Assembly: GCA_046090525.1 (NCBI GenBank)
Contig: JBJTAA010000342.1
Location: 1-42,005, forward strand
Source: Planctomycetota bacterium
Lineage (GTDB): Bacteria; Planctomycetota; Planctomycetia; Pirellulales; UBA1268
Reading direction: 5' to 3'
Length of the DNA: 42,005 nucleotides
Under the pieces are notes generated by a model, which saw only the letters and a list, made by a program, of their open reading frames with translations, ran no database searches and was not told where the DNA came from. Position 1 is the first letter of the stretch; each line of letters starts with the position of its first letter. Made by a program: the position numbers and the translations under genes. Below, in pieces: positions 1-28,500 of this stretch.

Positions 1-202
1 TCATCTCGGCCGGTCCGGGCAAGTCGGCCATGAAAAATCTGGCTTTCGCCCGGTTGGCCCGGCATCTTCCGAGGCGGGTCGGACGGTGAGGTGGCCCGGC
101 TGTGCAGGCCCCGTCGCGGCGCGGAAATCAGGTCGGCAGAAACGCCGATCTGGGCTGCGCCCCAAGCGAGCGCCGGGCGGGCTTGCGCGAAACAGCGCGA
201 AA

Positions 203-274
203 CTCCCCGAGTAGGGCTCGAACCTACAACCTACCGGTTAACAGCCGGCCGCTCTACCATTGAGCTATCGGGGA
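203..274 (-). tRNA. tRNA-Asn (anticodon GUU), 72 nt, 3' CCA not encoded
   Basis: The reverse complement folds as a canonical cloverleaf. Acceptor TCCCCGA/TCGGGGA; D arm GCTC-AATGGTA-GAGC; anticodon arm GCCGG-CTGTTAA-CCGGT (GTT); variable loop AGGTT; T arm GTAGG-TTCGAGC-CCTAC; discriminator G. Confidence 0.95.
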
Positions 275-499
275 TCGTCGAAAGGACGAGCCCCCGAGAA
301 TAGCGATTCGAGCGGGCAAAAGCGAGGCTCCCGGCCCGGGCGGGCCGCAACTGTCCAGCCGCCTGGCGACCGGTGCCGCGAGCCATTTCCCGCCGCTGAT
401 TGCCCGCCGTCCGCCTCCCGCTAGCCTGCCTGAGGACGGACTCCGTGGTGCCGGGCAGGCCGCCCTGGTCGACGACCCGCTCGGGGAGAACCTCCGTCC

Positions 500-2431
500 A
501 TGGCTGCGCGGCTGCAGGCCAATCCGTTCAACAACGGCATCATGTCCGACGCGTGGGCCCAGCCCGTCGTCGACGTGCCCGCGATCCACGGTGAGGTCAC
601 CGACTTCTGCCTCCAGCTGCTCGAGGAGGTCGCCCGCCAGCGAAAGAAGCGATCGATCCTGATTCACGGGGTGGCCGGCAGCGGCAAGACCCACACCCTC
701 TCCCGGCTCCGCACGTCGGCGGCCGGCAGGATCGCACCGACCCCGATCTTCTCGTACATCCGGCTCACGACCAGCCCGAACATGATCCGCAGGCACCTGC
801 GGCAGGGCCTGGTGCGGGATTTGGTCAGGAAGGGCGCCGACAACGCGCCGCTGCTCGAATCGCTGTTGCTCGAGGCGCTCGCCACGGAGACGGGAACCCG
901 TCCCGACCGGGCCGAACTGGACCGCTTCTGCGAGACGCCGGGGCAGTGCGGCACGCTTCGCACGGCGTTCGAGGAGATGTGTGTCCGGCTCGGGCTCGAC
1001 TATCACCTGGCCTGCGCCTGCCGCCTGTTCCTGCTGCGGCGGCAGCGGCATGCGGTGGTGCACTGGCTGGAGACGGGCGACCTGCCGGACGACGTGCGGG
1101 AGCAGCTGGGCTGCGACCTCGGCGCCCCCGCCGACGAGACTGCCGACCCCGAGCACGTCGCCTTCGGTGTGACGCTCCAGCTGGCGGCGCTCGCCACCGA
1201 CACGAGGCCGCTCGTGCTCTGCTTCGACCAGCTGGAGGCGATGCAGGTGGCCGCCGACGACGAGGCGGGCTACTTCGCCTTCGGCAAGCTCGCGGCCGAC
1301 CTGTTCGATCACTGTCAGGCGCTGCTCTTGGTCACCTGCGTGCAGACGGCGGCGGTGCCCCTCTTGGCCCAGGCGGTTCCCCCCCACGATTTCCACCGGC
1401 TGGCCCAGCATGAGCAGGTGCTCGCGCCGCTCACGGAGCAGCAGGCCCGCGAGCTGATCCGCGCCCGGCTCGACACCTCGGCGGCGCTCAGGCTCGATCC
1501 GCGGCGGCGTCTCAATCCGCTCTGGCCGATCGACGAAAAGCGGTTTCGCCGCTTCCTCGCCGCCGACCCGACGCCGCGGAGGCTCTGTGCCCTCGGCCGG
1601 GAGGCCTTCACGGCAGCCCATCGGATGCCGCCCGCGATCCACGAGTACCTCTCGGTGCTCTTCGAGCAGCGGCGGGGCGAGCCCCCGGAGGCCACGGGCT
1701 CGGAGCGCAACATCGTGCACGGGCTGGCCGTGTTGCTCGCCGCGCGGGGAGCGGAGGTGACGACGCCCGATGACCGTGAGGACGTCGATCTCGTGCTCGA
1801 CCTACCGGGCCGGCGGATCCTGATCAGCGTCTGCAACGAGGATGGTGGAACCCTCGCCCACAGGCTGAAGCAGATCCTCGACCGGCCGCCGACCGGCACC
1901 GAGGAGCGGGTCGTGGTCCGGGAGTCGCGCCGGCCGATCCCGCTGACGTCGAAGAAGGCCTGGGAGCACTGGCGCCGCCTGGCATCCGATCCCGGCGTCA
2001 CCGCGGCCGGGTTTCGCCGCGTGCGAACCCTCGCCCCGACGACCGAGGTGATCGCGGCGCTCGAGGCCGTGCGGTCGCTCATGTCCGACTCCCGGTCGGG
2101 CGACCTCGAGGCCCACGGGGAGGTCGTGCCGCCGGAGATCGTCGCCACCTGGATCCGGCAGCACCTCGAGGTCGACGGCCTGCAAGCGCTCCTCGCGGAG
2201 ATCGGTCTGGGGACCGTCGGGGCTGCGGCCGCGGCCAGCCACGGCGAGCTGCGAGACGCGGCCCTGGAGATCCTGCAGCGCCGCCACGTGATGTTCATCG
2301 AGGACCTCGCCGCCGCGGCGTGCTGCGACGCCGAGGAGATGCGGCTGATCCTGTCGGCCGACGCCGACGCGTTCGGCACGCTGGGCATCCCGCCGCTCGT
2401 GGCCTTCGACCGCTCGCGTCCCGGCCCGTGA
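500..2431 (+). CDS. P-loop NTPase, Orc1/Cdc6-like AAA+ type, with ~300-aa uncharacterised C-terminal region (643 aa)
   Basis: GGAGAA lies 9 nt upstream of ATG 500. Walker A is GVAGSGKT (nt 668-691) and Walker B-like is LVLCFDQLE (aa 238-246). A lid-like VLAPLTEQQARELIRARL resembles the Cdc6/Orc1 pattern. G/C-rich third codon positions run throughout. The stop is 10 nt before the next ORF. Confidence 0.8.
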   Translation: MAARLQANPFNNGIMSDAWAQPVVDVPAIHGEVTDFCLQLLEEVARQRKKRSILIHGVAGSGKTHTLSRLRTSAAGRIAPTPIFSYIRLTTSPNMIRRHLRQGLVRDLVRKGADNAPLLESLLLEALATETGTRPDRAELDRFCETPGQCGTLRTAFEEMCVRLGLDYHLACACRLFLLRRQRHAVVHWLETGDLPDDVREQLGCDLGAPADETADPEHVAFGVTLQLAALATDTRPLVLCFDQLEAMQVAADDEAGYFAFGKLAADLFDHCQALLLVTCVQTAAVPLLAQAVPPHDFHRLAQHEQVLAPLTEQQARELIRARLDTSAALRLDPRRRLNPLWPIDEKRFRRFLAADPTPRRLCALGREAFTAAHRMPPAIHEYLSVLFEQRRGEPPEATGSERNIVHGLAVLLAARGAEVTTPDDREDVDLVLDLPGRRILISVCNEDGGTLAHRLKQILDRPPTGTEERVVVRESRRPIPLTSKKAWEHWRRLASDPGVTAAGFRRVRTLAPTTEVIAALEAVRSLMSDSRSGDLEAHGEVVPPEIVATWIRQHLEVDGLQALLAEIGLGTVGAAAAASHGELRDAALEILQRRHVMFIEDLAAAACCDAEEMRLILSADADAFGTLGIPPLVAFDRSRPGP

Positions 2432-2441
2432 GGATCCCGTC

Positions 2442-4277
2442 ATGCCAGTCGCCTTGAGTGTCGCCGAGATTCGCAAGCGGCTCCTCGCCGAGCGGGATGC
2501 CGCGGCGGACCGAGATGGAGCCGCGGTCGTCGCGGCCGAACTGGGCGTGTTGTTCCACGAGGTCGTGTCGCTCTGCTTCACGGTCGGCTCGTCGCTCTAC
2601 GTGATCGACGTGCTCGAGGACGCCGAGCCCGCTGCCGTGGCCTGGAAGACGGCCCTCGTCGACGCCGTCTACCGGAGCGTCTTCGGGCCGCGACTGGATC
2701 GCGACCGCCCGACCTTGAATCACTTTCCCCGGGAGGTCGCGACCTGCTGGCGGGCGATCGAAAACCTCTGCGAATGGCTCGCCGGCGTGCTGCTGGTCGT
2801 CCACCGGAAACACGGATCGCTCGACGCCGCCCGCGACCTCGTCGATTGCGAGCGGATGCTCGAGATCGAGCTGCGGGAGCCCGGCTGGGCCGACAGCGTG
2901 CTGCTCCGCGGCCCGGCCGACGCCCTCCTCCGCCTGCCGGAGAGCCACACCTGGTGCGTGGTGGTGCTGGAGTCGGGCAAGCCGGCGTGGGAGGCCGACC
3001 TCGCGCAGGCGGCGCTCTACCGGCTATTGCTCACGAGCACGGAGGGGCAGCCGCGCGATCTGCGGCTCGTGGCCTTCGCCAACACCGTCCACGAGAAGCC
3101 GATCTCGCCGACGGAGATCGAACGGGCCGAGGCCCGGCTCAAGGAGGCCATCGGCCGGATCGCCGGGGTCGATGCCGAGGCCCCGGTGCAGCCCTCGCCC
3201 GACTGGCAGCAGCCCACGGCGGTTCATCGGGCCATGCGGGAGAGCCTGCTGCGGGTTCTCAAGGACTACGGGCTCGAGGCCACCATCGACGAGGAGCCCC
3301 GCCTGGGCCCCACCTTCATCCGGTTTCTCGTCACACCGGAAGCGGGCGCCAAGGTGTCGCGCTTCACCAGGCTCGTGGAGGAGATCGCGCTGGGCATGAA
3401 CCTCAAGAATCCACCGCTGATCGAGCGGCTGGGCGACCGCATCGCGATCGACATCGAGCGTCCCGACCGGCGGGCCGTGCGGTTCGACGAACTCCGCGGC
3501 CTGCTCCCCGCCCGCGATCCGCTGGTGGGAAACTCCCGGATCCTGGTGGGCGTGGACATGGACGGCCGCCCGGTGTTCATCGACCTGGCGAAGCCCGAGC
3601 ATTGCCACGTGCTCGTCGTCGGCACCGCCGGCAGCGGCAAGAGCATCTGGATGCGGGCCGCGATCGCGAGCCTCGTCGAGACCAACACCCCCGCCACGCT
3701 GCGGCTGGTGCTGATCGATCCCAAGCGAAACGCCTTCACGGCCTGGCGGTCCTCACCCTTCCTCCGGGCACCGATCGTCTACCCCGACGAGACCTCCCCC
3801 CTGCAGGTGCTCACCGGGCTGATCGAGGAGATGGAGGCCCGCTACCGGCGGATGGCGGAGCTGGAGGTGGACGACCTTGTCGGGCTCAACCGTCGCGAAC
3901 GGCGCCCGACGCCGCGGATCGTCTGTGCCTGCGACGAGTATGCGGATCTCGTGACCACCAGCGACGACCGGCGGGAGATCGAGGAGGCCATCGCGCGGCT
4001 CGGCGCCAAGGCGCGGGCCGCGGGCATCCACCTCGTCCTTGCCACGCAGACGCCCCGCCGGGAGATCATCGGCGGCACGATCAAGGCCAACCTGCCGACC
4101 TGCGTGGGCCTGCGGGTCTCGAGCGAGACGGAAGCCAAGATCATCGAGACGCCAGGCGCCGAACTGCTGCTCGGTGACGGCGACCTGCTGCTCCGCTCGA
4201 TCGGCGAGCCCCGCCGGCTGCAGGGAGCGCTCCTCACCGCCGGCCGCGAGAGCCCGGAACTCGTCGCCACGGGCTAG
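2442..4277 (+). CDS. Soluble FtsK/SpoIIIE-family DNA translocase with N-terminal RecB/Cas4-like PD-(D/E)xK-type domain (611 aa)
   Basis: GAGGA lies 7 nt upstream of ATG 2442. The N-terminus carries GPAD(160)...VVVLE(177)SGK(180)...Q(189)AALY(193). An FtsK alpha/beta-like segment reads GPTFIRFLVTPEAGAKVS. Walker A is GTAGSGKS (nt 3621-3644), Walker B is IVCACDEYADL, followed by HLVLATQTPRR. No hydrophobic N-terminal TM segments and no C-terminal gamma domain are present. Confidence 0.88.
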   Translation: MPVALSVAEIRKRLLAERDAAADRDGAAVVAAELGVLFHEVVSLCFTVGSSLYVIDVLEDAEPAAVAWKTALVDAVYRSVFGPRLDRDRPTLNHFPREVATCWRAIENLCEWLAGVLLVVHRKHGSLDAARDLVDCERMLEIELREPGWADSVLLRGPADALLRLPESHTWCVVVLESGKPAWEADLAQAALYRLLLTSTEGQPRDLRLVAFANTVHEKPISPTEIERAEARLKEAIGRIAGVDAEAPVQPSPDWQQPTAVHRAMRESLLRVLKDYGLEATIDEEPRLGPTFIRFLVTPEAGAKVSRFTRLVEEIALGMNLKNPPLIERLGDRIAIDIERPDRRAVRFDELRGLLPARDPLVGNSRILVGVDMDGRPVFIDLAKPEHCHVLVVGTAGSGKSIWMRAAIASLVETNTPATLRLVLIDPKRNAFTAWRSSPFLRAPIVYPDETSPLQVLTGLIEEMEARYRRMAELEVDDLVGLNRRERRPTPRIVCACDEYADLVTTSDDRREIEEAIARLGAKARAAGIHLVLATQTPRREIIGGTIKANLPTCVGLRVSSETEAKIIETPGAELLLGDGDLLLRSIGEPRRLQGALLTAGRESPELVATG

Positions 4278-4288
4278 GCCCGGCGATG

Positions 4289-4735
4289 TCAGCCACCGGC
4301 TGCCGGCCTGTCGCCCCGCCGCTTCTCGAGCAGGACGCTGTTACCCTTGGCGTTGTACTCGATCCTGGTCATGAACGAGCGCATCAGCATCACGCCGCGG
4401 CCGCCGGGCGCCTCGAGCCGCTCCTCGAGCGTGCAGTCGGGCACCTTCGCGGGGTCGAAGCCCTCGCCCTGGTCGGTGATCTCGAGCCGGACGAGCTCGG
4501 GCGATACCTCGCACTCCACGTGGACGGTCTTCGTGGGATCGAGCCGGTTGCCATGCACGACGGCGTTGACGAGGGCCTCCTCGGCGGCCAGGTGAATCGC
4601 GAACACGTCGTCCGCCGGCCAGCCGTGGAGGCCGAGCTGCTCGAGCAGGTCGTCGGTGACCAGCCGGCTCGCGCCCCGCTCACTGGGCAGTTCGATCGAC
4701 CGTCGCCAGGTCTTCACCGGGGGATTGTCCGCCAT
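4289..4735 (-). CDS. Anti-sigma factor serine kinase, RsbW/SpoIIAB-like (HATPase_c)
   Basis: 148 aa. N-box-like EEALVNAVVHGN, G1 box DQGEGFD and G2-like GGRGVMLM are typical of GHKL partner-switching kinases. It lies 36 nt downstream of a STAS gene. Confidence 0.85.
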   Translation of the reverse strand: MADNPPVKTWRRSIELPSERGASRLVTDDLLEQLGLHGWPADDVFAIHLAAEEALVNAVVHGNRLDPTKTVHVECEVSPELVRLEITDQGEGFDPAKVPDCTLEERLEAPGGRGVMLMRSFMTRIEYNAKGNSVLLEKRRGDRPAAGG

Positions 4736-4771
4736 GCCGTCCGCTCCGCCTCGTTCCGCCGGGCACCCGTG

Positions 4772-5122
4772 TCAGAAGGCCGCGATCGCCTCGGCCGCGT
4801 CGCCCCGGATGTCGAAGACCTTGTTGAGCTTTGTGACCTGGAAGACCTCCAGGATGCCGGGCGAGATGCCGCACATCTTCAGTCGGCCCTGGGCCGTCTT
4901 CACCTTGCGGTCGAAGGTGATGAGCTTCCCCAGGGCGGCGCTCGAGAGGAACTCGACCCCCTCGAAGTCGAGGAGAATGGCCTTGCGGTTGTCGACATCG
5001 ACGAGCGCCGCGAGCTCGGCTCCGAGCTCCTGGATCGCCGCCTCGTCGAGGATCTTGCGGTCGCGAAACCGGACCACCGAGACGGCGCCCGTCTTGGAAA
5101 CGTCGATCCGCTGCGTCGCCAT
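4772..5122 (-). CDS. STAS-domain anti-sigma-factor antagonist (SpoIIAA/RsbV-like)
   Basis: 116 aa. DFEGVEFLSSAALGKLI matches the conserved phosphorylatable-Ser segment of SpoIIAA/RsbV proteins. It is operonic with the kinase. Confidence 0.88.
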   Translation of the reverse strand: MATQRIDVSKTGAVSVVRFRDRKILDEAAIQELGAELAALVDVDNRKAILLDFEGVEFLSSAALGKLITFDRKVKTAQGRLKMCGISPGILEVFQVTKLNKVFDIRGDAAEAIAAF

Positions 5123-5496
5123 ACGGGTGCTCGCTACGTGTGTCCGGGGCCGACCCGGAGCGAGTGCACCTTACCGGTTTGGGCGGCCGCCTGCCATGCG
5201 GCCAGACAGCCGCCCGGCAGCGCGGGCACGAGCGGCCGGCGGCCGCCGAGGCGGGCCCGAACGAGCCCCGCCGCTGCCAATCTGGCAGCACCGCCGGCCG
5301 CGGGGCGGGGACACCCGGAAGGTTCGGCAAGCTCGCGAAAGACGGGAAAACCACGGATTTTCACTCCCTCAAGGGCGCCGGCTCGGTTCCGGCGCGCCAG
5401 TTGCAGGAAGGGGGGCGACGGTCGCAGTGTCGACCGGCGGCGGCAGGCAGCCCACGGGCGGATTCGGTTCCGACCTCAAAGGGTTCCCCGCCCGAA

Positions 5497-5523
5497 CTTG
5501 TCTTCCCCGAGCACTCCCCGTTT
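5497..5523 (+). promoter_or_regulatory. Candidate sigma32 (RpoH)-type heat-shock promoter upstream of groES
   Basis: CTTGTCT-N12-CCCCGTTT, compared with the consensus CTTGAAA-N13/14-CCCCATNT. It sits about 20 nt upstream of groES ATG 5542. This is a weak hand match only. Confidence 0.25.
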
Positions 5524-5541
5524 CCCAGAGGTTCTTCACGC

Positions 5542-7553
<2,012 letters not shown>

Positions 7554-9815: not shown

Positions 9816-10055
9816 TCACTCGGGCTCGATGGCGACCCGGGCCGCCTCGGCCCGCCGGATCGAGAGCCGGTAGCCGCGGAGCTCGAGTTCGAGCGGGTCG
9901 CCGAACGGAGCGCGGCCGACGACGCGGACGGTCACGCCCGGCGTCAGCCCCATCTCGAGCAGGCGGATCGCCACGCCGTCGTCGCCGGCGACGTCGCCCA
10001 CCCGCACGAAGTCGCCCACGGCGACCTGATCGAGGGTGGTCAGGGTGCTGGCCAT
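9816..10055 (-). CDS. feoA: FeoA family protein (79 aa)
   Basis: An SH3-like FeoA pattern is present (LDQVAVGDFVRVGDV...LLEMGLTPGVTVRVV...G.RLSIRR). It lies directly upstream of feoB. The upstream 60 codons of track ORF 9816..10235 were rejected. Confidence 0.9.
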   Translation of the reverse strand: MASTLTTLDQVAVGDFVRVGDVAGDDGVAIRLLEMGLTPGVTVRVVGRAPFGDPLELELRGYRLSIRRAEAARVAIEPE

Positions 10056-10075
10056 CGGGTGGGACGAGTCGGGGC

Positions 10076-10090
10076 TGAGAATCGGTCTCA
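10076..10090. promoter_or_regulatory. Candidate Fur-box-like palindrome upstream of feoA
   Basis: TGAGAATCGGTCTCA is a 7-1-7 palindrome. It matches 11/15 positions of the Fur consensus TGATAATNATTATCA and lies 21 nt upstream of the feoA start. Confidence 0.3.
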
Positions 10091-10238
10091 AGTGACGCTT
10101 GGAGTGTAGGAACCAGGTGGGGCCGCGGCAACGCCGGCGGCGGTGTTTCCCGGGGAGCACGAGCGACATAGCCTCAGTGCGCTTCCGGCGGCCCGGCGGC
10201 GGCCTGCGGTGGAACGCGTGCGAGGCGAGACTCATCCC

Positions 10239-10961
10239 ATGACCCCTTCCGATGCCTTTCCCGGCCGCGGGTTGTTCGTGACCGGCACCGACACCGATGT
10301 CGGCAAGACCTTCGCGGCCGTGGCGATCGTGCGGTCGCTCGTCGCCGCCGGCAGACGGGTGGGCGTCTACAAGCCGGTGGCCAGCGGCGTCGCCAACGTG
10401 GACGATCCGGGCGGCGATCCATACCGGCTCTGGGAGGCGGCGGGCCGTCCGGGAACGCCCGCCCAGGTCTGCCCGCAGGCATTCCCCGCGGCGATCGCGC
10501 CGGTGCGAGCCGCCGCCGCCGTCGGCCGCGCCGTGGACGAGGCGCTGCTCCGCACCGGCTTGGCCGCCTGGCGGGCGAGCGACCTGGTGGTCGTCGAGGG
10601 TGCCGGCGGCCTCTTCTCACCGCTCGGGGAGCGGACGCTCGGCGTTGAGTTGGTCCGCGAGTTCGCCCTGCCGCTGGTCGTCGTCGACTCCGCCCGGCTG
10701 GGCGCGATCGGCCGCACGCTCGCCACCGTGCGCGCAGCCCGGTCCGAGGGGCTCTCGATCGCCGCCTGCGTGCTTTCGCAGGTGGTGCCGCCGCGGGGAG
10801 TCGCGGGCGACCCGCAATCAGACGCCCAGATCGCAGCCGATGCCGTGGCCGATCTCCGCCGGCTGCTTCCCGGCGTGCCGGTCACGATCCTCGGGCACGC
10901 GGCGGCGGGCTTCACGCCGGCGGTCGACTGGTGGGCGGCGGCACGTGCGCCGGTCACGTGA
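10239..10961 (+). CDS. bioD: Dethiobiotin synthase (ATP-dependent), 240 aa
   Basis: The BioD P-loop GLFVTGTDTDVGKT is present, plus VVVEGAGGLFSP. The start was moved to ATG 10239. Confidence 0.9.
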   Translation: MTPSDAFPGRGLFVTGTDTDVGKTFAAVAIVRSLVAAGRRVGVYKPVASGVANVDDPGGDPYRLWEAAGRPGTPAQVCPQAFPAAIAPVRAAAAVGRAVDEALLRTGLAAWRASDLVVVEGAGGLFSPLGERTLGVELVREFALPLVVVDSARLGAIGRTLATVRAARSEGLSIAACVLSQVVPPRGVAGDPQSDAQIAADAVADLRRLLPGVPVTILGHAAAGFTPAVDWWAAARAPVT

Positions 10962-11039
10962 GGAGCCCGGTTCCGCCGGACCCGGGTCAGAGTTGCCGCT
11001 GCGTCACAAGTGATCCGGTCACGGCGTGACCGGGCTCCT
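10961..11039 (+). repeat. 79-bp palindromic REP/MITE-like intergenic element, copy A
   Basis: It has perfect 10-bp terminal inverted repeats (aggagcccgg ... ccgggctcct). It is 65/79 identical (ungapped hand alignment) to the reverse complement of 13994-14072. It starts at the last base of the bioD stop codon. Confidence 0.8.
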
Positions 11040-11076
11040 GGGCTGGAACCGGGTCGGCCGCGGCGCCCTCGCTGCG

Positions 11077-11095
11077 CCGGTCACGGCGTGACCGG
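11077..11095. repeat. Extra copy of the 19-bp hairpin core ccggtcacggcgtgaccgg
   Basis: It is identical to 11015-11033 inside copy A. Both are preceded by gctgcg. The stem is 8 bp with a 3-nt loop. Confidence 0.6.
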
Positions 11096-11110
11096 AATTC
11101 TCGGCCGTCG

Positions 11111-12112
11111 TCACGCGTCCCGCAGTCGGGCGGCGGCGTCGGCTGCCGGGAGCGCCGTGATGTGGCAGCCGGTGGCCAGTTCGAACCCGGCCAGTTCCGT
11201 GGCCCGCGGCAGGATCTCGAGGTGCCAGTGCCAGCGGTCGGTCGCGGCCGTGGACGTGGCGCCGTCCCAGGCAGCTTCATGCAGCCACCAGTTGTAGTCC
11301 GCGCCCGGCAGGAGCCGCGCGAGCCGCCCGACGAGATCCCGGGTGAGGTCGGCGACCGCATCCGCGGTGGCGGGCGGGGCCGCATGAAAGAAGGGCTGCC
11401 GCGCGGCCGGCACGATCCACGTCTCGCCGGGCTGGCGGGGAGCGGCGGGCACGAGCACCACGAGGCCGCCGCGCTCCGTCACGATCCGGCCGTCGGCCCG
11501 GGCCTCGGCCAGGAGATCCGCGAACGGGTCGGTCCGCCGGGCCGCCGCCTCGAACTCCGCCCGCACCGCCGGCGGCACGAAATCGATCGCCACGAGCTGG
11601 CTGTGGACGTGCTCGAGCGATGCGCCGGCCCGCGGTCCTGAGTTCTTGAAGACGGTGCCCCAGGCCAGATCACCCCGCCCGGCGAGCGCGGCCAGCCGCC
11701 GCCGCACGAGCTCCCAGGCGGCCCGCCAGCCGGCGGAATCGACCGTGAGGACCGACGTCTCGTGCCGGGGCGACTCGATCACCACGTCGTGCACGCCCAG
11801 GGCCGGTCGCAGATCACCGGCGTTCATGACGGCCGGCTCGGCGGCCTCCACGAAGGGAAAGCGATTGGGCACGATTCGCGCCTGCCAGGCCCGCGCGGGA
11901 TCGGCCGGCGCACGCATCACGTCGGGGGGCGTGCGGGTTTCGTTGCCCACGCAGAAGGGGCACCACGCGCTCGGTGCGGCACCGCCGTGCGCCGCGGCGA
12001 GTTCGGCGTCGCCGGGCCGTTCGTCCCGGCGGGGCGCCACGAACACCGCGCGGCCGGTGCGGTCGTCGTGCTGGACGAACGGGTTGCGGCGCGGCTGGGG
12101 CGATGCGGGCAT
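11111..12112 (-). CDS. Galactose-1-phosphate uridylyltransferase-like HIT-family nucleotidyltransferase (333 aa)
   Basis: The zinc motif CPFCVGNE, RIVPNRFPF, HDVVIESPRH and the active-site SLEHVHSQLVA (HxHxQ) are present. Confidence 0.85.
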   Translation of the reverse strand: MPASPQPRRNPFVQHDDRTGRAVFVAPRRDERPGDAELAAAHGGAAPSAWCPFCVGNETRTPPDVMRAPADPARAWQARIVPNRFPFVEAAEPAVMNAGDLRPALGVHDVVIESPRHETSVLTVDSAGWRAAWELVRRRLAALAGRGDLAWGTVFKNSGPRAGASLEHVHSQLVAIDFVPPAVRAEFEAAARRTDPFADLLAEARADGRIVTERGGLVVLVPAAPRQPGETWIVPAARQPFFHAAPPATADAVADLTRDLVGRLARLLPGADYNWWLHEAAWDGATSTAATDRWHWHLEILPRATELAGFELATGCHITALPAADAAARLRDA

Positions 12113-12761: not shown

Positions 12762-13133
12762 GTGCCTCCTCCTCCCCGCACCTGGCTCGGGAAGTTCGCC
12801 GACGCGTTTCGCGGCCTGTTCCTCTCGGTCCGCACCCAGTCGAGCTTCGCGGCCCATCTGCCGGTGGCGGCCGCCGCGGTCGCGCTGGGTGCGTGGCTCG
12901 GGCTCTCGGCGGTCGAGTGGGGCCTGGTGGCGCTCGCCATCGGCCTGGTGATCATGGCCGAGGTGTTCAACACGTCGATCGAGGCGCTCGCCAAGGCCGT
13001 GGGCTCCTATCCCGACGACGGGATCCGCGACGCGCTCGACCATGCCAGCGGCGGCGTACTGGTGGCGGTGCTCACCGCCGTCTCGATCGGCCTGATCGTG
13101 CTCGGGCCCAAACTCTGGGCCGCGCTCACCTAG
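12762..13133 (+). CDS. dgkA: Diacylglycerol kinase family protein (DgkA-like), 123 aa
   Basis: Three TM helices and the AEVFNTSIEALAKAV motif (DgkA E..NTAIE). The start is GTG 12762, preceded by GGGAGG. Confidence 0.85.
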   Translation: MPPPPRTWLGKFADAFRGLFLSVRTQSSFAAHLPVAAAAVALGAWLGLSAVEWGLVALAIGLVIMAEVFNTSIEALAKAVGSYPDDGIRDALDHASGGVLVAVLTAVSIGLIVLGPKLWAALT

Positions 13134-13172
13134 CCGGGGGCCGGTCCCCGCCGGGCTGGCCGCCGGGTGAGA

Positions 13173-13202
13173 TTGACGGCCGGAACAAGGTGGTTCTAGG
13201 TT
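13173..13202 (+). promoter_or_regulatory. Candidate sigma70-type promoter for aqpZ
   Basis: TTGACG-N18-TAGGTT, about 65 nt upstream of ATG 13269. Confidence 0.3.
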
Positions 13203-13268
13203 GTCGCCCGCCGCGGCATTCTGGCCGCCGGCAAGGCGGATTCAAGACACATCGCGGAGGCGGACACC

Positions 13269-13985
13269 ATGGCCGGCAAACTTCTGGCGGAGGCGATCGG
13301 TACCTTCTGGCTCGTGCTCGGCGGCTGCGGCAGCGCCGTCTTGGCGGCTGCCTATCCCGAACTTGGCATCGGGTTCGTGGGGGTGTCGCTCGCCTTCGGC
13401 CTGACGGTGCTCACGATGGCCGCGGCAATCGGCCACATCTCCGGCTGCCACCTGAACCCCGCCGTCACCGCGGGGCTCGTGGCCGGCGGCCGCTTCCCCG
13501 CCAAGGATCTCGTGCCCTACTGGGTGGCCCAGGTCCTCGGGGGCATCGCCGGGGCGGGCGTGCTCTACCTCGTGGCCCGGGGGCTCCCCGGCTTCGACGC
13601 CGCGGCCAGCGGCTTCGCCAGCAACGGCTACGGCCCGCACTCGCCGACGGCGGCCCTGGGCAAGGGGGGCTACCCGCTGGCCAGTTGCTTCCTGATCGAG
13701 GCGGTCCTGACCGCCGTCTTCCTGTTCGTGATCCACGGGGCGACCGACAAGCGGGCGCCCGGCGTGATCGCCCCGCTCGCGATCGGCTTGTGCCTGACGC
13801 TGATCCACCTGGTGAGCATCCCCGTCACCAACACCTCGGTGAATCCGGCCCGGAGCACGGCCACGGCCGTGTTCGCGCAGGGCTGGGCGCTCGAGCAGCT
13901 CTGGCTGTTCTGGGCGGCGCCGATGCTGGGGGCGATCGTGGGCGGGCTCGCCTACCGGGCCGTCTCCGAGTGCGGCACGGACTGA
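13269..13985 (+). CDS. aqpZ: Aquaporin Z (238 aa)
   Basis: Two NPA boxes (HLNPAVT and SVNPARS) and the AqpZ-like N-terminus [20 protein letters not shown]. Confidence 0.97.
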
Positions 13986-17227: not shown

Positions 17228-19162
17228 CTACTCGCCGGCCGAGGCCTGCTCGCGGGCGAAGGCGAGGGCCTCCCGCATCCCCTCGGTCCGCAGCGGCTCC
17301 GGCACGTCCTCGATCACGGCGACGGCCTCGCCGAACCGCCCCGCCTCCACCAGCGCCATGGCGAGGTTGTGGCGGAGCTCGACCTGCTGTGGGTAGCGGT
17401 CGGCGGCGATCGCGAACAGGTCGACGGCGTCGTCGAGCCGGCCGCCCTGGGCGTAGGCCGAGCCCAGGTTCTGCAGCGTGGCCAGGCGGTTGGGATTCGC
17501 GGCCAACGCCCGCTCGAACGCGGCCGTGGCCGCGGGCAGATCGCCCAGTTCGAGTTCGGCGAGGCCCTCGAGCATGGCGACCGGCACGGCCAGCGGGTCG
17601 AGCGACTTCCAGGGGGTGGTGCCGCGCCGGGCGGCATCCCGCATCGCCCGCCAATCGCCGTCCCGCTGGGCACGGCGGGCATCCATCACCGCCCGCTCCT
17701 GGAAGACCGCCGCGGCGGCGTAGCCGACGCCGAGCGCGAGCGCCGCCATGACCGGCGGAGCGACGAGCCAGCCGGCGAGTCGCACTCGCCCCGCGGCGGC
17801 CGCGGGGCGCCCGGCGCGGGCCACGAGCACGACCACCGCCAGGTGCACCGCGAGCACGGCCTGGTGGCTGATGCGGTCGAGCGGAAAGTCGAGGCAGCTG
17901 AACACGAGATAGGCGACGAGCGCCCCGAGCGCGGCCAGGGCCAGCCGGGCGTCGGTGACGCTCGGATCGCCGGCGAGGACGCGGCGCACGCCCGCAAGCG
18001 CGAGCAGGAAGACGGCCGCGAAGGCGAGGAAGCCGGGCAGGCCATGCTCGGCGAGCACCTCGAGAAAGTCGTTGTGCGGGTGGAGCCAGTTGTCGCTCGC
18101 AAGATTCGAGAAGTCGCGGGCCGCGCCCGATTCCGGATCCCGCAGGTGTTCGTGCAGGCGGATCGTGAAGTTGCCCCCGCCGACTCCGGCGATCGGGTGG
18201 GCGGCGAACATCTCGGCCGCGATGCCCCAGACCATCGTCCGGCCGCCGTCGGTGGGGCCCTCCTGCTGGTGCGGCCGCGTGATCGCGAGCCGGTGGATCG
18301 CCCGCCCGATCGCGGTGTCGGTGAACGCGAGGCCGCCGAGGCCGGCCGCCGCGATCAGGAGGCCGACCAAGCCCGCGGCGACGCCACGGCAAAGTTGCGG
18401 TGACGCGCCAAGCGGCCGCCGGCGGCGGAGGAGCGCGATGCCAGAGAGCACCGCCGCCACGGCCAGGGCCAGCCACGCCGCCCGCGATTGGAGCACCACG
18501 AGCACCGCCGTCGCCGCCAGGGATGTGACCATGGCCACCGCCCGCCAGCCGCCGGCCAGTTCCACCGTCGCGCAGAGGCACCAGGGCAGGAGCAGGAGCA
18601 GATAGCCCGCGAACAGGTTGACGTTCGACATCATGCCCTCGAGGAAGGCCAGTTCGAGGTCGCGACGGCCGGGCAGGCCGGCCCGCGCAAGCGGCCAGAT
18701 CTCCCACGCGGCGACCCCGACGGCCACGAGCGTGGCGACGACCGCCGTCTCGAGCAGCCGCTCGCGCCACCGCGGGTGCAACGGCAGCACGAGCAGGCAG
18801 AGGCAGAGCACGAGGAACCAGCTCAGCGTCCGAAACACGTCGGTCAGCCCGGCCGACGCGTTCACGGCCGCGAGGAGCGAGAGGCTCGAGGCGGCGAGGA
18901 ACGCGCCCGCCGCGATCACCACCGGTTCGCTGAGCACCCCCCAGTCGAGCCGTCGCGCGATCGGGCGCGTGAAGAGCACGGCGGGCACGGCCACGAGCAG
19001 CCCCACGAGCAGGGCCAGGAGCCGCGGCAGCTGCGAGACGTCGTAGGCCGCCGGATCGACGACGACGTGGAGCGCGACGAGCACCGCGGCGAGCAGGCTC
19101 GTGGCGGCCAGCAGGCCGGCCCGCGCCGGCACGGCCTCGGACGGGATGGGGCGATCGGTCAT
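17228..19162 (-). CDS. O-antigen ligase (WaaL/Wzy_C)-family polytopic membrane protein fused to C-terminal TPR repeats (644 aa)
   Basis: About 10-12 TM helices and the Wzy_C signature region HPHNDFLEVLAEHGLPGFLAF. The C-terminal ~170 aa carry TPR-like repeats (AFERALAANPN..., LGSAYAQGGRLDDAVDLF...). Confidence 0.8.
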   Translation of the reverse strand: MTDRPIPSEAVPARAGLLAATSLLAAVLVALHVVVDPAAYDVSQLPRLLALLVGLLVAVPAVLFTRPIARRLDWGVLSEPVVIAAGAFLAASSLSLLAAVNASAGLTDVFRTLSWFLVLCLCLLVLPLHPRWRERLLETAVVATLVAVGVAAWEIWPLARAGLPGRRDLELAFLEGMMSNVNLFAGYLLLLLPWCLCATVELAGGWRAVAMVTSLAATAVLVVLQSRAAWLALAVAAVLSGIALLRRRRPLGASPQLCRGVAAGLVGLLIAAAGLGGLAFTDTAIGRAIHRLAITRPHQQEGPTDGGRTMVWGIAAEMFAAHPIAGVGGGNFTIRLHEHLRDPESGAARDFSNLASDNWLHPHNDFLEVLAEHGLPGFLAFAAVFLLALAGVRRVLAGDPSVTDARLALAALGALVAYLVFSCLDFPLDRISHQAVLAVHLAVVVLVARAGRPAAAAGRVRLAGWLVAPPVMAALALGVGYAAAAVFQERAVMDARRAQRDGDWRAMRDAARRGTTPWKSLDPLAVPVAMLEGLAELELGDLPAATAAFERALAANPNRLATLQNLGSAYAQGGRLDDAVDLFAIAADRYPQQVELRHNLAMALVEAGRFGEAVAVIEDVPEPLRTEGMREALAFAREQASAGE

Positions 19163-25526: not shown

Positions 25527-28500
25527 ATGCCGGACCAAGAGCAGCCCGACCTGCGCCGCTACTTTGATCGGCGCTGGTATGTCGCCACCTACGGCGCGGG
25601 AAGGCGGCGGATCCGCTGGTGGCCATGGCACTACTACCGCCGCCGCGGCTGGCGAAAGGGCCATGCTCCCTGTCAGCTCTTCGATGCGGCGTGGTACCTC
25701 GACCGGAATCCCGACGTGCGGGCCGCCGGTCTCGACCCGCTCGCGCACTACGCCGGGCATGGCTGGCGCGAGGGGCGTCAACCACACCCGCTCTTCGATC
25801 CGTCGTGGTATGCCGCGCGCTACGCCGATGTCGGAGCCGCCGGCGTCGAGCCGCTGTTGCACTATCTCACCGTCGGCTGGCGGGAGGGCCGGCAGCCCCA
25901 TCCGGCCTTCGATGCAGCCGGCTACCTGGAGGCGAACCCCGACGTGGCGGCCGCCGGACTCGAGCCGCTGGCCCACTATCTCGCCTACGGTTGGCGGGAG
26001 GGTCGCCAGCCGCATCCCTTGTTCGACGGCGGCTGGTACATCGACCGCAATCCCGACGTCGCGCTCGCGGGGCTCGAGCCGCTCACGCATTTTCTGGGCA
26101 CTGGCTGGCGGGAACGGCGGGAGCCCTGCCCGTCGTTCTCGCTGGCCGCGTACGTGGCCGCCCGGCCCCGGCCGCTCGACGCGGGTGTGAATCCGTTCGT
26201 CCACTTTCTCGTCACCGAATACGACCCGGGCGATCGCGAGTCCCGAGCCGCCGTGGCGGCCCGCTACGCATCGGCCGCCCGACCGGCCGCCGTGGCGGCT
26301 GCCGCGCCGGCCGTCGGGCCGGCCAACCGCGGGCACGTGCGGGCGATCGCGATGTACCTGCCGCAGTTCCACCGCGTGCCGGAAAACGACGCCTGGTGGG
26401 GGGAGGGATTCACCGAGTGGACCAACGTCCGGCGGGCCCGCCCCATGTTTTCCGGCCACCAGCAGCCTCACGTGCCGCATCGCGACGTCGGCTACTACGA
26501 CCTGGACGACGAGACGGTGCTCGAGCGGCAGGCCGAGATGGCCCGCCGCCACGGCATCCATGGGTTCTGCTTCTATCACTATTGGTTTGACGGTCGCCGC
26601 ATCCTCGAGAAGCCGGTCGAAAGGCTGCTGGCGAGTGGCCGGCCCGACTTCCCCTTCTGCCTCTGTTGGGCCAACGAGAACTGGACGCGGACGTGGGACG
26701 GGCTCGAACGCGAGGTGCTCCTCGGGCAGCGGCACTCGCCCGACAGTGACGAGCGGTTTCTGCGCGACCTGCTGCCGGCCCTGCGCGACCCGCGGTACAT
26801 CACGGTCGAGGGGCTGCCGCTCGTGGCCGTCTACCGGCCGGGGCTGCTCGCCGAGCCCAGGGCCACCGCCGACCGCTGGCGGCAGATCGCCGAGCGGGAG
26901 GGCCTGCCGGGGCTGCACTTGGCCGCCGTGCACTCCTTCGACCAAGCCGACCCACGCACGTACGGCTTCGACGCGGCGATCCAGTTTCCCCCGCTCCAGA
27001 TTCCCGCGGCGAACCTGCGCGAGACGGGCCTCGCCGGCATGGACCGGCGGTTTCGGGGCGGGGTGCTCGATTACCGCGAGGCGCTCTGTCATTCGCTCGC
27101 CCGGCCGACGCCCGACTATCCGCTCTACCGGGGCGTGATGCCCGGCTGGGACAACACGCCGCGCCGGATGGAGCGGGCCACGGCCTGGGTCAACTCGTCG
27201 CCTGGTCTGTACGGCCGCTGGCTGCGGGGCGTCGTCGAGCAGATGCAGCGGGAGCAGCCGGCCGAACGGCAGCTCGTGTTCATCAACGCCTGGAACGAAT
27301 GGGCCGAGGGCGCCCACCTCGAGCCGGACGAGCGGCACGGCTACGCGATCCTCGAGGAGACGGCGGCGGTGCTCCTCCCCCAGCCGGCCGGAGCCCAGGT
27401 CGCCGCCGCGGCGGCGACCGCGCTGCCACGGGCCCGGGACCGCCATCCGACGGTCGTCGGTCACCGCCGGGCACGCCTGCGCACCCTGTTTGGCGGCGAC
27501 GTGCCCGAGGCCAGTCATGCCTTCCTGCTCGACCATGTCGCGGCGGTCGCCCGGCTGGCCGCGACCGGTCATCGGCTGACGCTCTGCGACGGCGTGCCCG
27601 TCTGCCAGGGCGACACCGAAACGATCCCTCTCGACGATCCCGCGGCGCTCTCCGCCAGCCTGCTCGCAGCGGATCGCGCCGGTGAACGCCCCTTCTGTTT
27701 CGTGCTGCTGCAGTTCAACCAGCCGGAGGTCACGGCCCGCTGCGTCGCCTCGCTGCGGCGGCTCTCCACGGTCACTCGCCGGGTGCACGTGGTGATCGTG
27801 GACAACGGCTCCGAGCCGGCGACGGTGGCCCGCACGCGGGAGTTGTTCACGGGCCTGGCCGACGTGACGCTCCTGTTCACCGGTGCGAACCTCGGGTTCG
27901 CCAAGGGCAACAACGTCGGCTACGCGCACGCCCGCGATGTCCTCGTGGCCGATTTCATCGCCGTCATCAACAACGACACGGTCGTCGGCGATCCCGCCTT
28001 CGTGGAGCGCTGCCTGGACGCGTTCCGGGAACGCCCCTGGTCGGTGCTCGGGCCCGATATCGTCACGCCCGACGGTCGGCACGAGAACCCGTGGAACGAC
28101 CATGTCTACGAGGCCGGCGAGTGGGAGGCGCTCGAAGACCTGTTCCGCCGGCAGCGGGCCGCCTGGCAGGCGGGCGGCCCGGCGGAGTTTCGCCGGCTCG
28201 GCTCCCGCAGTCCCGACGCGCCGACGCTCTGCGATCCGATCCTGCAGGGGGCGGCCTACGTCTTCTCACCCGTGTTCACCGCCGAACATGCGCGGGCCTT
28301 CGACGAGCGCACGTTTCTCTACGGCGAGGAGTTCCTGCTCGCGGTCGACTGTCTGCTCGCCGGGCACCTCGCCGTCTACGACCCACGGATCACGATCGTC
28401 CACGAGGAGGGCGTCTCCACCGCACGCGTGCCCGAGCGGCGGAAGCTCGCCCTCGGATACGACGCGGTCGTCGAGACGGCGGCGATCTGCCGGACGCGCC

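Follow-up and report, generated by a model that had tools for sequence, protein, structure and literature searches.

A two-gene Orc/CDC6-FtsK locus with a degenerate nuclease domain in a Planctomycetota metagenome-assembled genome: a probable reduced form of the HerA/FtsK capture cassettes

Closest described systems and layout of the locus

The gene pair analyzed here, ORF1 and ORF2 (open reading frames 1 and 2), occupies positions 500 to 4277 of contig JBJTAA010000342.1 from a Planctomycetota metagenome-assembled genome (MAG), the complete contig of 42,005 bp constituting the window of this study. Its closest described counterparts are the Orc/CDC6-coupled 'HerA/FtsK capture' anti-invader systems, which were delineated in silico by Rakesh, Aravind and Krishnan (Nucleic Acids Res 2024; PMC10853773). 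In these systems, an Orc/CDC6 protein with an inactive restriction endonuclease-like domain (iREase) and a winged helix-turn-helix (wHTH) domain is coupled to a protein consisting of a restriction endonuclease (REase) domain, an FtsK-alpha domain and an FtsK motor, while an optional extra gene, present in a subset only, encodes a fast-evolving protein with two to four winged helices of the DndG/SspB/FokI-like kind. One set of the motors carries FtsK-alpha, and its origin by capture of a cellular FtsK is inferred by these authors. An active REase is 'usually' encoded in the neighbourhoods, which are termed 'mobile gene neighbourhoods', and it has been proposed that Orc/CDC6 localizes the restriction apparatus, with the FtsK motor serving to intercept invader DNA and to pump it (Rakesh et al., 2024). 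A 2026 paper from the same group cites 'HerA/FtsK anti-invader capture systems'. Our literature search found the phrase in no further paper and yielded neither an experimental test of the class nor anything relevant on PDDEXK, Cas4-like or RecB-like nucleases combined with FtsK. Text and supplement of Rakesh et al. (2024) hold no name, taxon or accession that can be matched to the ORF1/ORF2 family.

The locus in the window resembles the HerA/FtsK capture systems in that an Orc/CDC6 AAA+ gene adjoins a HerA/FtsK gene, and in the combination of FtsK-alpha and FtsK motor (PF17854 plus PF01580). Its Orc protein also has an extra domain that lies between AAA+ core and a C-terminal winged-helix-like module, for which an iREase nature is a candidate assignment. 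Active REase motifs and a separate multi-wHTH gene are found in relatives of the pair. The clade to which the window belongs differs in two respects: a multi-winged-helix gene is absent, and the REase no longer possesses its catalytic glutamate. In the following, the multi-winged-helix gene is termed gene A, and the ORF1 and ORF2 homologues genes B and C. In our view, ORF1 and ORF2 probably represent genes B and C of a HerA/FtsK capture cassette of the Orc/CDC6-coupled type, in a reduced two-gene, nuclease-degenerate form. The original prediction, made from the letters of this stretch, had regarded the pair as a candidate for an undescribed defence-type module. As its architecture has been described by Rakesh et al. 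(2024), the pair is not an undescribed system but a trimmed variant within a class already known in silico. The features of the pair are the following (labels L001 to L116 denote fetched relative loci; AF2, AlphaFold2):

395-499, plus strand: conserved leader, candidate promoter region preceding ORF1 (blastn and MAFFT versus L113-L115)
500-2431, plus strand: ORF1 (gene B), 643 amino acids (aa), Orc1/Cdc6-type AAA+ ATPase as supported by Pfam, AF2 and Foldseek
590-1429, plus strand: ORF1 AAA+ core, aa 31-310, with Walker A G57-x-x-GSGKT64, Walker B hhhhF-D243-Q244-x-E246 and R300 (alignment, AF2 secondary structure)
1700-2224, plus strand: ORF1 middle alpha/beta domain, aa 401-575, candidate iREase insert (AF2 secondary-structure order)
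2246-2419, plus strand: ORF1 C-terminal winged-helix-like module, aa 583-640 (AF2 secondary structure; site of the Orc/Cdc6 winged helix)
2430-2434, plus strand: GAGGA, Shine-Dalgarno-like site overlapping the ORF1 stop codon, 7 nt before the ORF2 ATG (sequence read directly)
2442-4277, plus strand: ORF2 (gene C), 611 aa, FtsK alpha/beta motor preceded in the same protein by a degenerate RecB-type nuclease domain
2442-3176, plus strand: ORF2 N-terminal PD-(D/E)xK (RecB/Cas4-like) domain, aa 1-245 (PDDEXK_1 matches in relatives, motif alignments, AF2)
3216-3464, plus strand: FtsK alpha domain, aa 259-341 (Pfam PF17854, E 1.6e-7; covered by the Foldseek FtsK motor alignments)
3537-4241, plus strand: FtsK beta (RecA-like) motor, aa 366-600 (Pfam PF01580 FtsK_SpoIIIE, aa 366-538, E 1.4e-31)

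The two co-directional reading frames of the original prediction, their lengths, their spacing and the GAGGA in front of ORF2 agree with coordinates and sequence: read directly, ORF1 ends with TGA at 2429-2431, ORF2 starts with ATG at 2442 and the intergenic gap measures 10 nt. Because of this short gap and the GAGGA that overlaps the ORF1 stop codon, the two genes look translationally coupled. Upstream, window positions 234-488 are ~72% identical over 263 nt to the DNA directly preceding the ORF1 homologue in L113-L115, three loci that carry an 84%-identical gene pair (blastn, MAFFT). Conservation is strongest in the final ~110 nt before ORF1 and suggests a cassette-borne promoter or regulatory region as a candidate function of the leader. 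Consensus sequences for a sigma-70 promoter or an intrinsic terminator were not found in window positions 1-5200.

Domains of ORF2 and ORF1

With regard to the nuclease-derived domain, the N-terminus of the window's own ORF2 is not matched by Pfam PDDEXK_1 (PF12705) even at E<=10, and the proteins of L084 and L086 are likewise unmatched. The same model matches 35 of the 58 aligned ORF2 family members (best E 1.6e-12) and is carried by ORF2 relatives at 38-57% identity. When the N-terminal 245-290 residues of five relatives were isolated, they reached 27-38 bits against PDDEXK_1 (gathering score 22) over model positions 31-225 of 247. A sequence search of the PDB with the ORF2 N-terminal profile gave nothing, even at E<=10. 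The AF2 secondary structure of residues 139-241 (strands, helix 183-201, two strands, helix 223-241) fits the PD-(D/E)xK fold. In addition, relatives present the G-x-x-F-H-E, h-h-h-D, E-x-K and Q-x-x-x-Y motifs of RecB, AddA and Cas4 in this order, namely as G-x-L-F-H39-E, G-x-x-D160-A, W-C-V-V-E175-L-K177-T-G and Q189-x-x-L-Y193. The family differs from Cas4 by the absence of a four-cysteine cluster, only one cysteine being invariant. A descent of the ORF2 N-terminus from a RecB/Cas4-type PD-(D/E)xK nuclease is supported by these alignments, and the homology postulated in the original prediction stands.

The motif on which that prediction relied does not. The window stretch W-C-V-V-V175-L-E177-S-G-K180 aligns to W-C-V-V-E175-L-K177-T-G of the relatives (family consensus WCVVELKTG), the E-x-K of RecB, AddA and Cas4 thus reading V-L-E in the window. 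The true catalytic pair is E175-x-K177 and not the E177-S-G-K180 proposed earlier: E177 occupies the lysine column, and K180 lies at a position that is not conserved (R, Q, A or P in the closest relatives), whereas D160 and Y193, also named in the prediction, are invariant in the family. While the window protein keeps H39, D160 and the Q189...Y193 element, its catalytic (D/E)xK motif is missing. Residue 175 is V, M or L in 14 out of 14 members of the window clade (>=60% identity). At residue 177, the closest members carry E, D, Q or S, and the group next to them carries K or R. In RecB-family nucleases, the metal site is made up of the residues corresponding to H39, D160, E175 and K177, and an E. 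coli RecB D1080A mutant, altered at the E175 equivalent, is reported to be without nuclease activity. Because E175 is replaced by V and K177 by E at these metal-site positions, the nuclease of the window ORF2 is probably catalytically dead or severely impaired as far as the canonical site is concerned. The earlier proposal of a translocase-nuclease effector does not hold for the window copy in its original form, since the catalytic glutamate is missing here and clade-wide. Within the window clade, the N-terminal domains share 0.50 identity at a motor identity of 0.74, compared with 0.54 at 0.66 in the clade with intact nuclease. Judged from this relation, the nuclease-derived domain of the window clade is not in free decay and is conserved as a fold.

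The motor of ORF2 is a genuine soluble FtsK alpha/beta motor, as originally proposed. It comprises Walker A GTAGSGKS (K400), Walker B C-D498-E499-Y, K523/R525 and the sensor Q536. G394-x-x-GSGK400, E499, K523, R525 and Q536 are invariant in the family, and D498 is kept in all sampled relatives but one. The family profile matches P. aeruginosa FtsK in the PDB at 8e-82, and the AF2 model (predicted local distance difference test score, pLDDT, 86.9) superimposes in Foldseek on 6t8g, 6t8b and 2iut with template-modelling (TM) scores of 0.74-0.80 and root-mean-square deviations of 2.5-3.5 A at 35% identity. The Foldseek list for the whole model is dominated by FtsK-superfamily motors and also contains TcpA; NCBIfam yields weak TraB and TraD matches. 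ORF2 thus shares with cellular FtsK/SpoIIIE the alpha and beta motor, Walker A and B, the arginine finger and the sensor Q, but differs in lacking the N-terminal membrane domain, the linker and the gamma domain, which reads KOPS (FtsK-orienting polar sequences), and in possessing a nuclease-derived N-terminus and an Orc-like partner gene. The lack of membrane anchor and gamma domain, noted already in the original prediction, is borne out. There is no convincing membrane segment in ORF2, the Kyte-Doolittle maximum of 1.82 (aa 28-46) coinciding with the nuclease motif-I helix of a globular N-terminal domain, and a gamma domain is not matched by Pfam, only ~10 disordered residues following the last motor strand.

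ORF1 is matched by Pfam AAA_16 (aa 38-251, E 1.6e-10) and AAA_22. Its AF2 model, built from an alignment with 37 homologues, has a mean pLDDT of 86.8. Foldseek against the PDB places human, fly and yeast ORC1, Cdc6 and ORC4 together with archaeal Orc1/Cdc6 (2v1u, 1fnn, 1w5t) at the top (E 5e-6 to ~1e-3, probability 1.0), and BREX BrxC (9zdx, 7e-4), RADAR RdrA (8hr8, 2e-3) and TnsC (7ufi, 3e-3) lower in the list. The modelled fold supports an Orc1/Cdc6-type AAA+ protein, in agreement with the original assignment, the Walker A sequence GVAGSGKT and the segment LVLCFDQLE being present as described there. Of 65 aligned family members, all possess K63, Q244 and R300, and 64 possess D243 and E246. 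As the Walker B motif (window 1226-1237, aa 243-246) reads F-D-Q-x-E instead of the usual D-E, the family may consist of slow or switch-type ATPases. Past the lid, residues 401-575 are modelled as one helix followed by three strands, another helix and a final strand. D430, located at the second strand, is conserved, and S443-x-C-N446 stands in the place of (D/E)xK. This domain takes the position of the iREase in the systems of Rakesh et al. (2024), between AAA+ core and C-terminal winged helix. Pfam found nothing meaningful in the middle domains of eight diverse relatives, and hhalign against the ORF2 nuclease domain gave no signal (probability 0.4%). The C-terminal module is modelled as helices 583-595, 600-606 and 611-620 with strands 597-599, 625-628 and 634-637. 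The ORF1-like family is large, comprising 566 clusters (50% identity, E<=1e-30) among 1.84 billion representatives, while relatives were not found in 2.9 million viral contigs.

With respect to other known machines, PADLOC v2 recognized no complete system, in line with the original prediction, and gave no match for gene A. The ORF2 motor matched the C-termini of SspH (2e-51) and mad8 (1e-21), and ORF1 gave P-loop-level matches only. DndH and SspH of the DndFGH and SspFGH systems likewise combine in a single chain a restriction-endonuclease-fold domain with a HerA/FtsK motor that follows it at the C-terminus. However, they are proteins of 1500-1770 aa with many extra domains, ORF2 aa 1-280 match nothing there, and the match of ORF2 to the PADLOC SspH models is confined to their final ~260-320 residues. 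The match between ORF1 and SspF is restricted to the P-loop (E 0.03), and there is no SspG, DndG or DptG match for ORF1, ORF2 or gene A. HerA-NurA, SIR2-HerA and DUF4297-HerA also combine a hexameric pump of the FtsK/HerA superfamily with a nuclease or other effector (Foldseek E 1e-6 to 1e-7), but employ HerA-clade motors and separate effector subunits, in contrast to the FtsK-clade motor, RecB-type fusion and Orc-like partner of ORF2. By fold, BrxC/PglY (BREX), RdrA (RADAR) and TnsC belong to the same AAA+ clade as ORF1. They differ in that their sequence matches are confined to the P-loop and in having other partners and C-terminal domains.

Three-gene cassettes and their two-gene derivative

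Gene neighbourhoods were checked by profile searches of six-frame reading frames in all fetched loci. In the window and its relatives (~25 loci), the ORF1 homologue ends 0-30 nt before the ORF2 homologue or overlaps it. This adjacency is present in L001, L002/3 (Bryobacteraceae), L004 (Planctomyces MAG), L006 (Solibacteraceae), L007 (Blastocatellia), L008 (Deltaproteobacteria MAG), L009 (Planctomycetota), L084-L092 and L113-L116 as well as in the metagenome loci L093-L097, L100, L101, L103, L104 and L106. Among loci with DNA upstream of the C gene, a solo ORF2 homologue occurs only in L005 (Schlesneria). ORF1 and ORF2 are a real pair, conserved as neighbours across phyla, and the linkage on which the original prediction depended is thereby verified.

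In at least 15 relatives, gene A lies immediately upstream of B, often overlapping its start. It encodes 280-690 aa with repeated modules and weak winged-helix Pfam matches. Its members are mutually only 25-28% identical, the C-terminal module being conserved. The order A-B-C is found in all loci that combine a C protein retaining (E/D)xK with a sufficient length of contig upstream, and the three-gene cassette occurs in Planctomycetota, Acidobacteriota and one Deltaproteobacteria MAG. In the 42-kb window, on the other hand, no match to gene A was obtained anywhere (hmmsearch --max), and the gene is missing in seven contexts of the window clade (the window, L084/85, L086/87, L088/89, L113-115, L116 and GCA_041443045). 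A 105-aa gene is retained upstream of the pair in L086/87 and GCA_041443045, and that of L086/87 weakly matches the C-terminal module of gene A (E 0.048). Within this sample of seven contexts, loss of E175 and loss of gene A coincide completely. At the level of sequence comparison, these loci establish that the pair descends from the three-gene cassette.

As to the distribution of the family, ~50 clusters at 60-91% identity stem from many metagenomes. A scan of 185,579 species genomes used motor-based patterns that were swamped by canonical FtsK and gives no prevalence; at least ~10 full-length or contig-truncated family loci were among the matches listed, the rest being motor-only at 33-40% identity.

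Several cassettes deviate individually. In L001 (5839-8001, on a 1.07-Mb contig), genes A and C are intact, but the coding sequence of the Orc-like gene is broken up into three or more reading frames, which reflects either a pseudogene or long-read indel errors. L097 contains a second gene-A-like winged-helix gene (5811-6821) downstream of the nuclease-FtsK gene, and in L100 (7902-9977) gene A is enlarged to ~690 aa with repeated modules. Both forms fit a fast-evolving, modular DNA-recognition subunit. The Deltaproteobacteria MAG L008 has a fragmentary second FtsK-motor region in two frames (12815-13503), ~1 kb downstream of the intact cassette.

Proposed function, alternatives and genomic setting

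According to the model of Rakesh et al. (2024), C of a full cassette would reel in duplex DNA that is then cut by its nuclease. A and B would recognize and mark this DNA, with B positioning or loading a hexameric C motor that is free of the directing gamma domain and the membrane anchor of cellular FtsK. In the window clade gene A is gone and cutting via the canonical site would be lost, while both ATPase sites, that of the Orc protein and that of the FtsK motor, are intact. Because catalytic residues and gene A are lost and these sites persist, the window copy can be pictured as a DNA translocase that is powered by ATP, is directed by its Orc-like partner and probably does not cut via its canonical site. 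It may serve as a non-nucleolytic or helper-dependent anti-invader device, or it may represent an exapted or decaying derivative.

Several points weigh against this reading. Active-site residues of PD-(D/E)xK enzymes are known to migrate, and an acidic residue is present at position 177 in four of the five closest sequences, such that residual nuclease activity of the window ORF2 is possible. The iREase and winged-helix assignments in ORF1 are candidates drawn solely from the order of modelled secondary-structure elements, and the role of B as a loader is suggested by analogy. Defence is a prediction for the class and the window copy alike, drawn from the domains present and the associations described in Rakesh et al. 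(2024). Moreover, the surveyed neighbourhoods are mostly of housekeeping type. Defence or mobile neighbours are occasional in ~20 loci, and those of L092 and L002 are the only ones of conflict type.

A further reading takes the two-gene clade not as a decaying remnant but as a functional machine of its own kind. An Orc/Cdc6-like ATPase would load a soluble FtsK hexamer onto DNA, and the dead nuclease would act solely as a DNA clamp or sensor. We put this forward tentatively, as unlikely. If true, the machine would provide a defence that expels or immobilizes foreign DNA without cutting it or, alternatively, a domesticated device for chromosome or plasmid handling in a widespread environmental lineage of Planctomycetota, and in either role a bacterial ORC-type loader for a ring translocase.

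Among the rival explanations, exaptation of the pair in this lineage of Planctomycetota is rather unlikely; it would then have taken on a host role such as repair or the handling of chromosomes or plasmids, and would no longer be a conflict system. Exaptation would be consistent with the loss of catalytic residue and gene A next to two strongly conserved ATPases, with the ~50 clusters from many metagenomes, with a fully host-like codon composition and housekeeping neighbours, and with the leader and the downstream HATPase remnant common to the window and its 84%-identity relatives. Flanking genes nevertheless differ among relatives of 74-84% identity, which fits poorly with a fixed core locus, ORF2 lacks membrane anchor and gamma domain, and no link to dif/Xer, par or division genes was seen in any locus. 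We regard as improbable that, as originally proposed, the window copy works as an active defence effector of the translocase-nuclease type, with catalysis by relocated residues such as D160 plus E177 and K180. In its favour, D160, H39 and Y193 are retained, the acidic residue at position 177 is shared by the window with the aligned close relatives P0003, P0008 and P0011, and the N-terminal domain remains constrained. Against it, position 175 carries V, M or L throughout the 14 clade members, and position 177 shifts from E/D/Q/S in the closest members to K/R in the next group. In addition, position 180 varies between K, R, Q, A, P and G without any alternative conserved acidic-basic pair, PDDEXK_1 no longer detects sequences of the window clade and the recognition partner, gene A, was lost simultaneously.

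Very little speaks for mobile-element machinery, i.e., an Orc-like initiator combined with a TraB/FtsK-like pump for double-stranded DNA transfer or partition. The designation 'mobile gene neighbourhoods' (Rakesh et al., 2024), the movement of DNA by FtsK-like pumps in conjugative elements together with the TcpA match in Foldseek and the weak TraB/TraD matches in NCBIfam, and the spread of the family over several phyla would accord with it. On the other hand, neither integrase, relaxase, replicase nor repeats flank the pair in the window or in ~20 relatives, the 2.9 million viral contigs are free of ORF1 relatives, and the cassette measures just 4-5 kb and sits among housekeeping genes. Least credible of all is that ORF2 is the divisome FtsK of the organism, in spite of the NCBI annotation as 'DNA translocase FtsK' and a motor most similar to cellular FtsK. 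This reading was rejected in view of the missing membrane segments, the missing Pfam gamma-domain match, the nuclease-derived N-terminus and the near-constant coupling to an Orc-like gene, and family loci among the matches listed for the 185,579 species genomes number at least ~10, with motor-only matches making up the rest.

The capture cassette in reduced form remains our preferred explanation, and the finding opens no new category. The anatomy drawn up in the original prediction is correct for the most part. The class unites the ring ATPases of replication licensing (Orc/Cdc6) and chromosome segregation (FtsK) with a nuclease in a predicted interceptor of invading DNA. What is added here is that the A-B-C order is essentially invariant across phyla, that the Orc-like family is large, and that in one entire sub-clade the recognition gene and the catalytic glutamate disappeared jointly, with both motors retained. 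The window clade would thereby constitute a natural separation-of-function variant and a useful comparison for motor action without cleavage.

Turning to the genomic setting, a tRNA-Asn(GTT) is located at 203-274 on the minus strand, with its 3' end toward the contig end and its 5' end toward ORF1. Because the 3' end faces the contig end, the pair is not on the usual insertion side of tRNA-targeting elements. The argument of a tRNA-associated accessory hotspot, advanced in the original prediction, is not supported, and a tRNA-island reading was rejected: relatives lie in unrelated, mostly housekeeping contexts, and no tRNA adjoins the pair in any window-clade relative. The caveats already raised there were justified, as no integrase was found near the pair in the window, repeats in positions 1-6000 are short GC-rich chance matches, none of them tRNA-derived and none meaningfully flanking the pair, and composition resembles that of the flanks. 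GC content is even at ~0.70, and the GC content at third codon positions is 0.93 for ORF1 and 0.91 for ORF2, within the range of 0.84-0.98 spanned by neighbouring genes.

Downstream, the pair is flanked by genes for an RsbW-like HATPase, a STAS protein, GroES/GroEL and FeoB, followed by a polysaccharide cluster. The first two converge on ORF2:

4289-4735, minus strand: RsbW-like HATPase_c_2 gene converging on the ORF2 stop codon
4772-5122, minus strand: STAS (anti-sigma antagonist) gene, converging toward the ORF2 stop codon

In L113-L115, a frameshifted remnant of the window's HATPase gene directly follows the ORF2 homologue (in L113 at 10956-11251, with 47.6% across 82 aa and an additional piece in a different frame). 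Elsewhere the flanks comprise efflux pumps, DnaE, peptidases and transporters and vary by locus. The evidence for mobility of the pair is mixed, since L113-L115 (84% identity) share the ~110-nt leader and the HATPase remnant with the window, yet have otherwise different neighbours, and the 74% relative L116 shares none of these with it.

Individual neighbourhoods contain further genes. A type I restriction HsdR gene (1-2879) lies ~2 kb upstream of the three-gene cassette in L092, and RelE/MqsA and DUF433/DUF5615 toxin-antitoxin-like pairs flank the cassette of L002 (4315-5013 and 13291-13691). Transposases are found near the pair in L084 and L091. In the latter, a Planctomycetes MAG, a T2SSE/PilT-like ATPase gene (9988-11049, 353 aa) follows the nuclease-FtsK gene on the same strand after 14 nt, and a DDE transposase is located ~2.5 kb beyond it. 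L115 encodes a reverse transcriptase (RVT_1, 434 aa; 5748-7052) ~1.4 kb downstream of the 84%-identity pair. Finally, window positions 17228-41710 are taken up by a large polysaccharide-biosynthesis cluster that includes the following genes:

17228-19162, minus strand: Wzy_C (O-antigen ligase-like) plus TPR protein
25527-29855: 1442-aa fusion of WbsX, GT2 and GT4 glycosyltransferase domains

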